The translations under genes and the position numbers were made by a program. From Escherichia coli O157:H7 (GTDB lineage: Bacteria; Pseudomonadota; Gammaproteobacteria; Enterobacterales; Enterobacteriaceae): DNA of 64,000 nt. Positions 43,858-48,866 of this stretch are shown here, one piece after another (positions within the stretch are counted from its first letter, which is position 1; every line of letters starts with the position of its first letter). Below the pieces are notes generated by a model, which had not been told where the DNA came from, ran no database searches, and saw only the letters and a program-made list of their open reading frames with translations. The stretch lies in the NCBI RefSeq assembly GCF_013167455.1, contig NZ_CP038328.1; one strand, written 5' to 3'.

Positions 43858-44561
43858 TACTCGTCCTTCACATTTCCCGGAATAATTGCGGTTTTCTCTT
43901 GTTCACGGCGATACCAGTAATAAGCCCCTTTCGAAATCATTCGCAGTTGCAGTACCAGTCGCTCTTCTAATTGCCGACGTTGTTCAACGCCGACGTCCAA
44001 CGCCTCGGCACCCGCACTGAAGACAATTGTCACCATTGCTTCGGCTTGCGCTTCAGTAAACGCACGCGGCATATGGTTTTCGAGTTCCAGATAGTCCGCA
44101 AGTTCCGCAATGAAGTGCTGAATTTCACGCGCAACGGCGGCACGAAACGCAGCGGAGGTGCCGGAGCGTTCCCGCAATAATAACCGGAAGGCGTTAGGAT
44201 TATTACCGATGAACTCCATAAATGTGGAGACCGAGGTGCGGATCACACTCCCGCCTTTGGCGATACGCTGACGCGCCTGGCGCATGAGTTGGCGTAGCAT
44301 TAAACCGCTCTCATCAACCATGGTCAGACCCAGTTCGTCTACGTCTCGGAAATGCCGATAAAAAGAGGTGGGAGCAATGCCCGCTTCACGCGCCACTTCA
44401 CGCAAACTCAGGCTGGCGAAGCTGCGTTCAGCACTTAATTGGCTAAATGCGGCTTCCACCAGCGAACGGCGGGTTTTTTCTTTTTGTTGCGCTCTTACGC
44501 CCATCACGATGTCTGAATCCTTGCCAAAAGTACTGCTGGCACTATACCAGAGAATGAACAT
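43857..44561 (-). CDS. fabR: TetR-family repressor of unsaturated fatty-acid synthesis (start ambiguous: 44504, 44561 or 44600)
   Basis: ORF 43857..44600; Tet[23 protein letters not shown]; in-frame candidate starts MGVRAQ (44504) and MFILWY (44561). Confidence 0.88.
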
Positions 44562-44610
44562 ACTGGATTGCTCCAGTATTGTGAATGAACGGTAACGCAA
44601 TAAAACATAT

Positions 44611-45927
44611 TTACTGCAATTCTTTGGCCGGTTCTTTTACGTACAACAACGCCAACATCGACAGCAACGTGCCTCCACCCAGATACCACGCCGGAGCCGT
44701 CAAACTATCCAGCAACACGATGGATTGCGTAGCGAAATATTGAGCAAAACCGCCAAAGATTGCCACACCAATGCTATAAACCAGCGCAAAACCCAATGCC
44801 CGAATCCGTTTCGGCAACAGTTCAGAGATCAACAACATCACTGGCACACCGCCAAGCGTGGTAAAGCTGACCATCACGAAAACCACCGTCAGCAACATGC
44901 CTGGGCTTGGGTAATTCACCAACAGCCAGAATGACGGCCAGCTACAGATCAGCACCATCACACGGGAGATTAAAATCAGCTTTTTACGCCCGACCGAATC
45001 GCACAACATCCCCACCAGCAGCGCACCCACAAACGTAATAACGCCCGCCAGTAACATCGCTGCATGAGAATAGTTTTGGTTCATTCCTAAATACTTCGCC
45101 GCCCATGTACCGTAATAAAAGAGGGAGATATAGGTTGCGACTGTACTACCAATAGCGAGCAAGATACCGTTAGCGATAGTCGCTTTATGTTGCATAAGTA
45201 AGGAGAAGGCGCTTTCGCTGGCTGCGGCCTTCTTATTATGTGCTGGCTCAGGAACATCATTTTCCAGACTCAAACGCAACCAACAGCCGACAGGCGCTAA
45301 TAACACGCCAATAAAAAACGGCACACGCCAGCCCCATTCAGCCATGACGGTTTCTGAACCGGTCGCAAAGGGCAGCCATGCACTTAAACCTAAAGCGACA
45401 ACACCTCCAAAAGTTGTTGCCAGGCCTTGAGTCGCCAGTGACCAACTGCTGTAAAAACCGCGACGATTTGCCGGAGCTGATTCAACCAACAAAGACATTG
45501 AGGCACCGACTTCGCCTCCTGCCGCAACGCCCTGAATTAGACGCGCTAGCACCAGCGTCGCGGTTCCCCAATAGCCCGCCGTTTCATACGTCGGTGCGAT
45601 GCCGATCATCAGTGTACCAAGACTCATCAGCGCAATGGTGAACACCATCGCGGGTTTGCGTCCGAAACGATCGGCCCAGGCCCCCACAATAATGCCGCCG
45701 AGCGGGCGCATAAAAAAGCTCACGCCGAAAGTGGCAAACGCCAGCAGTAGCGCGACGTTTTTATCTGCACTGGGCGGAAAAAATAGCGTGCTGATATAGA
45801 CCACAAAAAAGTTGTAAACGCCAAAATCAAAAAATTCGAGCGCATTGCCAAACGCCGAGGCAAAAATCACCCGCCTGCCGCTGGGCTTTTTCTTCACACT
45901 CACGGTTTCATTTACGATCGCCGTCAT
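44611..45927 (-). CDS. MFS transporter, metabolite:H+ symporter (MHS) type, 438 aa; accessory
   Basis: ORF track; multiple TM helices; MFS signature [10 protein letters not shown] between TM2 and TM3; AAGGAA SD upstream; 42-bp gap from the upstream hydrolase gene. Confidence 0.85.
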
Positions 45928-45969
45928 TCCATGTTCCTTGCCAAAAAGTGTTGTTGTGTGTTGTTTTAT

Positions 45970-47136
45970 TTATTGCAGCCAGGCTTCTACCAGTGCGCCC
46001 CAGTAGCTGCTTGCCGGGACCAGACTTGCATCGTTGAAGTCGTAACCCGGGTTATGCACCATGCAGGAACCTTCCCCGACATCGCCATTACCGAATAACA
46101 GGAAACCGCCTTTGGGTTGGGCTTCCAGCATGAAAGAGAAATCTTCACTGCCCATCAGGGGCTTGATGCCAAACTCGGCCCGATCTTCACCAAACGTTTT
46201 ACACGCCACCTGCCAGGCGAAGCGCGCCATCTCCTCGTCATTTACTAATACTGGTGTACCGTTAACATGCGTAACCTCAGCCGTAGCGCCAAAGCTGGCA
46301 GCCTGGGCTTGTGCCAGAGCAGGAATACGGGTCAGAAGAAGTTGTCGGGTATCGCGGCTAAGAGAGCGGACGCTGATTTTCATCTCAGCACTGTCAGGAA
46401 TGACGTTAGCCGCCTCACCCGCAACAATGCTGCCGACGGTAATTACCGCCGCTTCCAGCGGATCGACATTGCGTGACACAATGCTTTGTAATGCGGTGGT
46501 GATATGTGCGGCAACTAGCACCGGATCGATGGCTTTGTGCGGGATCGCACCGTGTCCGCCACAACCACGAACTGTAATATGGAACTGATCCATTGACGCC
46601 ATCAGTGCCCCTGGCTGGAAATAAAACTTACCCACCGGCAGACCGGGCATGTTATGCATGCCGAAAATGACATCGCAGGGGAAATGATCAAAAAGCCCCT
46701 CTTTAACCATGATCTCACCGCCATTAATCATCTCTTCCGCAGGCTGGAAGATAAGACGTAACGTGCCGTTAAAACGGCGGGTTTCGGCAAAATAACGCGC
46801 GGCCCCCAGCAGTATGGTGGTATGCCCGTCATGCCCGCAGGCGTGCATTAAACCAGGATGTTTACTGGCCCAGGGCTTGCCACTATTTTCATAAATCGGC
46901 AGCGCATCCATATCCGCCCGCAGGCCAATACTTTTCTCTCCGTCGCCCACTTTTAACGTGGCCACTATCCCCGTCGTCGCCAGTCCTTGCTCTACTTCAT
47001 AGCCCCACTGACGCAGCTTTTCCGCAACCAAAGCACTGGTTTTAAATTCTTGTAATCCCAGCTCCGGGTTTTCGTGGATCTGATGGCGGATCTCACGCAG
47101 TTCTTCCTCAAACCCTCGAATATAGTGTTCGATCAT
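45970..47136 (-). CDS. M20D-family amidohydrolase (hippurate-hydrolase / N-acyl-amino-acid amidohydrolase-like), 388 aa; accessory
   Basis: ORF track; metal-binding motif ACGHDGH, QPAEE, GMHNMP; AAGGAA SD 6 nt upstream of the ATG. Confidence 0.85.
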   Translation of the reverse strand: MIEHYIRGFEEELREIRHQIHENPELGLQEFKTSALVAEKLRQWGYEVEQGLATTGIVATLKVGDGEKSIGLRADMDALPIYENSGKPWASKHPGLMHACGHDGHTTILLGAARYFAETRRFNGTLRLIFQPAEEMINGGEIMVKEGLFDHFPCDVIFGMHNMPGLPVGKFYFQPGALMASMDQFHITVRGCGGHGAIPHKAIDPVLVAAHITTALQSIVSRNVDPLEAAVITVGSIVAGEAANVIPDSAEMKISVRSLSRDTRQLLLTRIPALAQAQAASFGATAEVTHVNGTPVLVNDEEMARFAWQVACKTFGEDRAEFGIKPLMGSEDFSFMLEAQPKGGFLLFGNGDVGEGSCMVHNPGYDFNDASLVPASSYWGALVEAWLQ

Positions 47137-47465
47137 CGGCTATTCCTTTATTCACTTATAAACAGGCTAATTAACGGATTTTATTGATGGTGTAAATACA
47201 AATAACTCATCAATATAAAATATTTATATGTTTGTTTTATAAGAAGATTTCACAAAGACAATAACAAAAAAGCACGCTTCGGCAAGATAAAACTATCAGC
47301 CATAATAAAAAGCGATTAATAGTGAATAAATGGGTTAAGAAGGAGGCAGACAAAGCAAAGGCCGCTCACGCTATAGCCAGATTAATGACGGGGATCAATT
47401 GGCTTACCCGCGATAAAATGTTACCATTCTGTTGCTTTTATGTATAAGAACAGGTAAGCCCTACC

Positions 47466-48866
47466 ATGCCACATTCCTACGATTACGATGCCATAGTAAT
47501 AGGTTCCGGCCCCGGCGGCGAAGGCGCTGCAATGGGCCTGGTTAAGCAAGGTGCGCGCGTCGCAGTTATCGAGCGTTATCAAAATGTTGGCGGCGGTTGC
47601 ACCCACTGGGGCACCATCCCGTCGAAAGCTCTCCGTCACGCCGTCAGCCGCATTATAGAATTCAATCAAAACCCACTATACAGCGACCATTCCCGACTGC
47701 TCCGCTCTTCTTTTGCCGATATCCTTAACCATGCCGATAACGTGATTAATCAACAAACGCGCATGCGTCAGGGATTTTACGAACGTAATCACTGTGAAAT
47801 ATTGCAGGGGAACGCTCGCTTTGTTGACGAGCATACGTTGGCGCTGGATTGCCCGGACGGCAGCGTTGAAACACTAACCGCTGAAAAATTTGTTATTGCC
47901 TGCGGCTCTCGTCCATATCATCCAACAGATGTTGATTTCACCCATCCACGCATTTACGACAGCGACTCAATTCTCAGCATGCACCACGAACCGCGCCATG
48001 TACTTATCTATGGTGCTGGAGTGATCGGCTGTGAATATGCGTCGATCTTCCGCGGTATGGATGTAAAAGTGGATCTGATCAACACCCGCGATCGCCTGCT
48101 GGCATTTCTCGATCAAGAGATGTCAGATTCTCTCTCCTATCACTTCTGGAACAGTGGCGTAGTGATTCGTCACAACGAAGAGTACGAGAAGATCGAAGGC
48201 TGTGACGACGGTGTGATCATGCATCTGAAGTCGGGTAAAAAACTGAAAGCTGACTGCCTGCTCTATGCCAACGGTCGTACCGGTAATACCGATTCGCTGG
48301 CGTTACAGAACATTGGGCTGGAAACTGACAGTCGCGGACAGCTGAAGGTCAACAGCATGTATCAGACCGCACAGCCGCACGTTTACGCGGTGGGCGACGT
48401 GATTGGTTATCCGAGCCTGGCATCAGCGGCCTATGACCAGGGGCGCATTGCCGCGCAGGCGCTGGTAAAAGGCGAAGCCACCGCGCATCTGATTGAAGAT
48501 ATCCCTACCGGCATTTACACCATCCCGGAAATCAGCTCTGTGGGCAAAACCGAACAGCAGCTGACCGCGATGAAAGTGCCATATGAAGTGGGCCGCGCCC
48601 AGTTCAAACATCTGGCACGTGCACAAATCGTCGGCATGAACGTGGGCACGCTGAAAATTTTGTTCCATCGGGAAACAAAAGAGATTCTGGGCATTCACTG
48701 CTTTGGCGAGCGCGCTGCCGAAATTATTCATATCGGTCAGGCGATTATGGAACAGAAAGGTGGCGGCAACACTATTGAGTACTTCGTCAACACCACCTTT
48801 AACTACCCGACGATGGCGGAAGCCTATCGGGTAGCTGCGTTAAACGGTTTAAACCGCCTGTTTTAA
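47466..48866 (+). CDS. sthA: soluble pyridine nucleotide transhydrogenase, 466 aa
   Basis: ORF track; [27 protein letters not shown]-binding N-terminus. Confidence 0.96.

Follow-up and report, generated by a model that had tools for sequence, protein, structure and literature searches.

The AT-Rich Gap between an Aminoacylase Gene and sthA in Escherichia coli O157:H7: A Probable Composite Divergent Control Region

The DNA considered in this study, called the window throughout, is a stretch of 64,000 nucleotides from Escherichia coli O157:H7. The part of it that matters here carries, in order, trmA (plus strand), yijD (minus), fabR (minus), an MFS gene (minus), a gene for an M20 aminoacylase (minus), a gap of 329 bp, sthA (plus) and oxyR (minus). 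The gap, positions 47137–47465, lies exactly between the start of the aminoacylase gene on the minus strand and the start of sthA on the plus strand, and PGAP places the flanking starts at the same positions in identical O157 genomes. When 4.6 kb around the gap were used as a query, O157 genomes matched at 100% identity; the window, Sakai and EDL933 do not differ in the intergenic sequence. The genes that bound the gap, together with the partner of the aminoacylase gene, are:

44611–45927, minus strand: MFS metabolite:H+ symporter (ECs4893 / EDL933_RS26200)
45970–47136, minus strand: M20 aminoacylase of 388 aa (ECs4892 / EDL933_RS26195), an N-acyl-amino-acid amidohydrolase of the "hippuricase" type
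47466–48866, plus strand: sthA, soluble pyridine nucleotide transhydrogenase (NF003585 match, 1e-242)

The aminoacylase, or hydrolase, matches TIGR01891 (3e-107) and has YxeP, ILR1-like 2 and N-acyl-glutamine aminoacylase as its relatives in the PDB. The hydrolase and MFS genes together are called the cassette. On its other side the cassette is separated from fabR by 103 bp, in which positions 44536–44585 (minus strand) contain a fabR promoter-like sequence, TTCACA-17-TATGTT, and two terminator-like hairpins. In carriers of the cassette, fabR and yijD lie directly 3' of the MFS gene and in the same orientation, so that coupling by read-through is possible.

The base composition of the gap is unusual for its surroundings (34.3% GC, as compared to 52.4% for the window). 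The stretch from 47141 to 47340, at 26% GC, is the minimum among all 200-bp stretches of the 64 kb, the next minimum being 36.5%, and windows as AT-rich as the core of the gap amount to 0.04–0.09%. An earlier note on this DNA had described an AT-rich region of 329 bp running between the hydrolase and sthA starts, and both the coordinates and the composition are as described; the AT-rich run that it quoted, ATAAAATATTTATATGTTTGTTTTATAAGAAG, occurs a single time, at 47215–47246. The AT-richness is, however, uneven, with 28.6% GC in 47137–47346 and 44.5% GC in 47347–47465. That the DNA is curved, as was also proposed, is not borne out: AA/TT periodicity of 9.5–11.5 bp within the gap does not exceed that of shuffled sequences (P = 0.28 and 0.12), and no regular spacing is seen among the A/T tracts. 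The 210-bp AT-rich tract is present in single copy, and its reading as a repeated element is ruled out.

The earlier note had suggested comparison with K-12 as a means of finding which part of the gap is ancestral. In K-12 (locus L001) the gap between fabR and sthA measures 330 bp. The K-12 sequence follows that of the window as far as 44645 and resumes its match at 47347, the alignment breaking at 47346/47347, and in place of the 2701 bp of the window that lie between these points K-12 has an unrelated 73 bp. The comparison divides the 329 bp into 119 bp next to sthA that are common to K-12 (116 of the 119 positions identical) and 210 bp found only with the cassette; the outcome that the note had set against its own proposal, identity of all 329 bp with K-12, is not what is observed. 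In the outgroups Salmonella enterica, AP022256 (Enterobacteriaceae) and Atlantibacter hermannii, the cassette is absent from the locus and fabR and sthA are adjacent, with gaps of 193–198 bp that align with the K-12 gap only over about 95 bp by fabR and about 70 bp by sthA. The match on the sthA side begins at CAATTGG, which is position 47396 of the window. The gap therefore falls into three layers:

47137–47346, no strand: cassette-only AT-rich part, 210 bp, 28.6% GC, found neither in K-12 nor in the outgroups
47347–47395, no strand: Escherichia-specific segment, 49 bp, kept in K-12, with no counterpart in the three outgroup gaps
47396–47465, plus strand: Enterobacteriaceae-wide sthA core promoter and leader, 70 bp, invariant in 8 of 8 Escherichia sequences

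Within E. coli the first layer is confined to the 1507 genomes that are cassette-positive. The second is, to judge from the alignments, the distal edge of the DNA originally inserted. As to the origin of the 73 bp specific to K-12 (L001 1747–1819), no significant similarity was found to the interior of the cassette, to the O157 or B2 allele of the cassette-only gap, to the outgroup gaps or to a LysR protein.

The difference between K-12 and O157 might in principle have arisen by gain or by loss, and the K-12 gap itself retains a piece of the cassette:

44611–44645, minus strand: last 11 codons and stop of the MFS gene, present as a 35-bp relic in the K-12 fabR-sthA gap

The relic is a genuine gene end rather than the product of accidental read-through, because the C-terminus of the MFS protein aligns with the MFS C-termini (e.g., PFMKETA, CLKEAPR) encoded at about nine loci in Burkholderiales and Pseudomonas, where the MFS genes lie directly downstream of hydrolase homologues. 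Since K-12 retains the end of the MFS gene, the K-12 allele is a deletion derivative. The alignments thus indicate that K-12 lost the cassette by deletion, and not that O157 gained it.

The distribution of the cassette is broad. E. albertii has the full syntenic 10-kb locus, cassette included, with 87.5–100% identity per segment, and the identity of the cassette segments is within the same range as that of the flanking core genes. One E. fergusonii genome and one cryptic-clade Escherichia also have the arrangement oxyR-sthA-[329 bp]-hydrolase-MFS-fabR. The acquisition must be old, because the cassette is common to these three, although the copies in E. fergusonii and the cryptic clade could reflect recombination rather than vertical descent. 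The description of the cassette as acquired therefore survives at the depth of the genus and fails as an event peculiar to O157. A recent O157-specific insertion was considered and is ruled out by the synteny in E. albertii, E. fergusonii and the cryptic clade, together with the MFS relic in K-12. Among complete E. coli genomes, 1507 of 5426 (about 28%) have the cassette at this locus; carriers of serotypes O157:H7 and O55:H7 share at least 99.7% identity with the window, and ST131, ATCC 25922 and O18 about 96%. With one genome considered per species, the best homologue of the hydrolase outside Escherichia is from the betaproteobacterium Silvimonas (63%), followed by those of Bordetella and Paraburkholderia (57–58%). 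Two E. coli records labelled as plasmids contain the AT-rich gap along with the hydrolase gene, which may stem from mis-assembly or from actual mobilization. A further record, NZ_CP050498.1 (E. coli RM13322), was matched by the 4.6-kb query over 24%, in three pieces and with no fabR annotated, and its locus may be rearranged or disrupted.

The earlier note had also remarked that no regulator gene accompanies the cassette. This is confirmed, whereas the homologous pair in Paraburkholderia (locus L006) has a divergent LysR gene. The LysR/M20 aminoacylase/MFS unit of Paraburkholderia resembles the Escherichia cassette in the order and orientation of hydrolase and MFS genes (the products being 57% and 41% identical, respectively) and in having a dyad-symmetric block of the T-N11-A type upstream of the hydrolase gene. 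If the regulator is disregarded, the hydrolase-MFS pair recurs in about nine loci of Burkholderiales and Pseudomonas. The Escherichia locus differs in that the divergent partner of the cassette is sthA and not a gene of the LysR family, in the 29% GC of its upstream DNA, and in the lack of any LysR remnant, none being detectable in the gap by tblastn (best E = 0.55).

On the sthA side of the gap, Park et al. described an ArcA site of three repeats, ATGTTACCATTCTGTTGCTTTTATGTATAAGA, which spans −36 to −5 relative to the sthA start site and through which ArcA represses sthA 18-fold (PMC3798270). By Cappable-seq, start sites of sthA were mapped in EDL933 at 10, 32, 40 and 152 nt from the start codon, and the same source gives 12 nt for MG1655 (PMC10469882, Table S5 sheet 3). 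In window coordinates the EDL933 sites are 47456, 47434, 47426 and 47314, and the main site of EDL933 is within 2 nt of that of MG1655. That the gap must hold at least one sthA promoter, as had been proposed, is established by these four start sites and the ArcA operator. The features concerned are:

47279–47306, plus strand: upstream sthA promoter TCGGCA-16-CATAAT, EDL933 start 47314, 152-nt leader, in cassette-only DNA
47399–47434, plus strand: sthA promoter TTGGCT-17-TGnTACCAT, start 47434, 32-nt leader, from PWM scan and Cappable-seq
47414–47419, plus strand: sthA −10 hexamer TAAAAT, start 47426, 40-nt leader
47418–47449, plus strand: ArcA operator ATGTTACCATTCTGTTGCTTTTATGTATAAGA, three direct repeats, an exact copy of the K-12 site
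47443–47456, plus strand: sthA P1, with −10 TATAAG at 47443–47448 and starts at 47454 (MG1655) and 47456 (EDL933)

Each of the EDL933 start sites is preceded, at an appropriate spacing, by a −10-like hexamer found independently of the mapping, and TCGGCA-16-CATAAT is the sole promoter reported by a strict promoter scan. The start site at −152 falls inside cassette-only DNA, and carriers therefore have an extra sthA promoter that is impossible in K-12. The two regions agree in the 32-bp ArcA operator, in the −10 sequence TATAAG (identical in both) and in the main start site (12 nt from the start codon in K-12, 10 nt here). They differ in the divergent neighbour, which in K-12 is fabR rather than the aminoacylase gene, and in that K-12 lacks the 210-bp AT-rich tract and the −152 promoter and carries instead the unrelated 73 bp and the 35-bp MFS relic, both products of the deletion.

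The −10 hexamer of the −152 promoter is polymorphic, occurring as CATAAT, CATAAG or TATAAG. The first form is found in 371 genomes (O157:H7, O55:H7 and others), about 25% of carriers, and in a cryptic-clade genome as well; the second is found in 1118 genomes, among them O83:H1 and the three aligned loci of B2 type; and TATAAG is the form in E. albertii and E. fergusonii. A second polymorphism lies nearby at 47332–47335, with TGGG in O157, TUM13936 and cryptic-clade Escherichia and AAAA in B2-type E. coli, E. albertii and E. fergusonii. This block and the allele at 47306, taken together, suggest that the O157 allele of the gap is shared with the cryptic clade by recombination.

In none of the eight Escherichia lineages compared does the gap depart from 329 bp or show an insertion or deletion, and its cassette-only part is 94–99% identical. 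The 55 bp next to the hydrolase ATG (47137–47191) show one to three changes relative to O157 in any of the seven other lineages. In comparison with E. albertii, the 210-bp tract differs at 12 of 210 sites, while the numbers of synonymous codon differences are 64 in the hydrolase gene, 86 in sthA (a partial comparison) and 131 in the MFS gene (nonsynonymous, 12–19). Synonymous sites have diverged several-fold faster than the AT-rich part, though the low divergence of the tract may be due in part to mutation bias rather than to selection. Ratios of synonymous to nonsynonymous differences in the cassette genes range from 39:4 to 131:19 in the two comparisons of greater divergence (strain 1162C and E. 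albertii). Both genes are, by this measure, under strong purifying selection, and they must therefore be expressed in nature. Among E. coli lineages the MFS gene contains a hot-spot of divergence at 45000–45800, where 100-bp bins are 78–90% identical, as compared to 97–100% in the flanks; the differences are mostly synonymous (73–131 codons, against 11–19 nonsynonymous), and the pattern resembles a mosaic in which old alleles have been kept by purifying selection.

Expression of the cassette has been recorded under laboratory conditions. In Sakai, ECs4893 rises by a log2 value of 2.09 (about 4.3-fold) at the transition to stationary phase in MOPS-glucose minimal medium, when glucose is exhausted. 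The gene was placed in QT cluster 2, which its authors linked with RpoS-regulated genes and which also contains acs and aceBA (their Table 2). In the literature searched, no mention of the sthA-fabR junction was found, and a search on Z5522, Z5523 and ECs4892 gave a relevant report for ECs4893 only. Cappable-seq of EDL933 located a start site within the MFS gene, 138 nt into the coding sequence, at genome position 5056730, which corresponds to 45789 of the window on the minus strand. Among the entries listed in that source it was seen in exponential LB, M9, acid and stationary M9 cultures, and it is the only cassette start site among them (PMC10469882). The site lies inside the MFS gene, and therefore the array signal of ECs4893 could originate there and not in the gap.

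On the hydrolase side of the gap, the candidate promoter and operator elements are:

47155–47160, minus strand: predicted proximal hydrolase −10 TATAAG, with a poor −35 (TAAAAT) and a leader of about 12 nt, read from the sequence
47258–47285, minus strand: predicted distal hydrolase promoter TTGCCG-16-TGnTATTGT, from PWM scan, with a predicted start at about 47251
47182–47240, no strand: dyad-symmetric block, comprising an inverted repeat, a palindrome and four ATA-N9-TAT motifs
47182–47189 / 47208–47215, no strand: inverted repeat of 8 bp, TATTGATG / CATCAATA
47213–47229, no strand: palindrome of 17 bp, ATATAAA-ATA-TTTATAT

Neither promoter candidate scores above shuffled sequence (the distal one reaches 9.87, less than the mean best score of 10.7 in shuffles), and the strict scan reported none on the minus strand. 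The poor −35 of the proximal candidate is what would be expected of a promoter that depends on an activator. The promoter of the cassette is predicted probably to lie within the AT-rich part. The distal candidate deserves notice only in that it stands back-to-back with the mapped −152 promoter of sthA, on an invariant GC-rich core (47272–47286).

ATA-N9-TAT is the minimal pattern of Nac and other LysR-type proteins. Four of the nine instances in the window lie in 47202–47240, within 39 bp (P ≤ 0.0005 from shuffles), a clustering that results from the palindromic nature of the block and points to no single protein. The block can be regarded as a candidate operator for a LysR-type, Nac-like or nucleoid protein. 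Motifs for CRP, sigma-54, ArgR, Fur, TyrR, NtrC and ArcA (outside its known site) found no matches in the gap, and those for FNR, Lrp, IHF, Cra and ATC-N9-GAT found matches at or near the level of chance. A TCACA half-site at 47250–47254 was considered as a conserved CRP site and rejected, as it is specific to O157.

The gap is probably an ordinary two-way control region, in which an old sthA promoter is joined to the DNA of a gene pair that is itself ancient in Escherichia. The account that I consider probable is that the divergent regulatory region is composite and was put together in three steps of evolution. The first is the 70 bp next to sthA, a core promoter common to the Enterobacteriaceae and repressed by ArcA through three repeats that cover −35 to −10. 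In the second, the other 259 bp would have arrived with the M20 amidohydrolase and MFS pair, inserted between fabR and sthA; the pair would have been acquired once, by the ancestor of the genus Escherichia and without the LysR-type regulator, and a later deletion of 2.7 kb produced the K-12-type allele, leaving behind the 35-bp MFS relic and 49 bp of the DNA upstream of the cassette. In the third, 47137–47346 would have been kept by purifying selection as functional regulatory DNA, holding the mapped extra promoter of sthA and presumably also the promoter and operator of the aminoacylase-MFS operon. The promoter of the operon is most likely a weak one that depends on an activator. It may be the proximal TATAAG (47160–47155), served by the ATA-N9-TAT dyad block, or else the distal TTGCCG-16-TGnTATTGT, back-to-back with the −152 promoter of sthA. 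The operon is switched on as glucose runs out or stationary phase is entered.

A different reading, which develops that of the earlier note, takes the AT-rich tract to be mainly a nucleation site for H-NS, which would keep an acquired cassette silent in the laboratory until relieved by a substrate or by an anti-silencer. H-NS prefers AT-rich DNA. The tract fits this general preference, since its GC content (26–29%) is the lowest in the 64 kb, and the cassette is foreign at the depth of the genus and lacks a regulator of its own; there are also two weak matches to TCGATAAATT, at 47178–47187 and 47410–47419, each with two mismatches. These two are, however, the best to be found, so that a close match to the motif is lacking, nor is the motif enriched, and AA/TT helical phasing is absent. 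The features of H-NS-silenced promoters are thus present as regards AT content and horizontal acquisition and absent as regards a high-affinity motif and curvature.

A comparison can be drawn with known H-NS-silenced loci (e.g., bgl, LEE and proU; PMC2646131, PMC4764244). Local AT-richness, foreign genes and the lack of a dedicated regulator are shared with them. Here, however, the AT-rich stretch is short, only about 210 bp, and is flanked by 200-bp windows mostly of 46–61% GC, unlike typical silenced islands; the GC content of the cassette (50.5%) is host-like, near that of the window; and the operon is conserved, with both genes under strong purifying selection. Moreover, ECs4893 is induced about 4.3-fold in a laboratory minimal medium as glucose is exhausted, and the start site at 47314, within the tract, was detected in EDL933 grown in vitro. 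For ECs4892/4893, neither H-NS binding nor results from hns mutants turned up in the literature searched. On these grounds silencing of the cassette by H-NS is not favoured and I consider it rather unlikely as the main role of the tract, though H-NS may modulate the region.

The AT-rich tract could also rewire sthA by serving as a promoter hub for both directions, perhaps sharing a core, and possibly regulators, with the aminoacylase-MFS operon. As in known back-to-back bidirectional promoters, a mapped promoter on the plus strand and a predicted one on the minus strand share the GC-rich core 47272–47286. The likeness is incomplete, in that a start has been mapped in one direction only, it is the −35 elements that overlap, and the prediction for the minus strand lacks statistical significance. 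I regard the hub as unlikely. Were it nonetheless true, the presence or absence of the cassette and the single-base polymorphism at 47306 would make for lineage-specific control of the NADPH/NADH transhydrogenase, and the control of sthA would be linked to the use of scavenged N-acyl amino acids once glucose is exhausted.

The tract might, at the other extreme, be a spacer left over from the insertion, with the extra sthA promoter as its sole activity and the cassette weakly transcribed or transcribed from within (45789). This would account for the failure of sigma-70 predictions to reach significance on the minus strand and for the location inside the MFS gene of the sole cassette start site among the entries listed (PMC10469882). 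It would not account for the 55 bp upstream of the hydrolase ATG, changed at only one to three positions per lineage in a gap that has never suffered an insertion or deletion. Furthermore, the hydrolase is under purifying selection and so must be expressed, and the gap is the only non-coding DNA upstream of it. The spacer reading is on these grounds quite improbable.

Still less credible, indeed very hard to maintain, is a substrate-sensing cis-regulatory RNA leader (riboswitch or attenuator), small RNA or peptide encoded in the region: a leader of 115 nt is possible from the predicted distal promoter, the 8-bp inverted repeat (47182–47189 / 47208–47215) could form a hairpin and the −152 start site is followed after 8 nt by an ORF of 41 aa, but no Rfam match was found at E ≤ 1 in 44300–47800, the folding of the two candidate leaders does not surpass that of shuffled sequence (z = +0.37 and +0.87) and the ORF has no ribosome-binding site. 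The ORF itself (47322–47447, plus strand) is GTG-initiated, ends just before sthA and is probably spurious.

The composite region, as the favoured account would have it, bears on how the control of sthA is viewed. The direction of the difference from K-12 is corrected, the cassette being something that K-12 has lost, and the ancestral bases of the region upstream of sthA are identified. sthA is a key gene in redox balancing, and its regulation has been studied almost exclusively in K-12, yet about 28% of complete E. coli genomes (O157 and B2 strains such as ST131 and ATCC 25922) have 210 additional bases upstream of it, with an active promoter. The operon on the other side of the gap, conserved, without a regulator and induced at glucose exhaustion, may offer a tractable case of a host taking control of an operon that it acquired.
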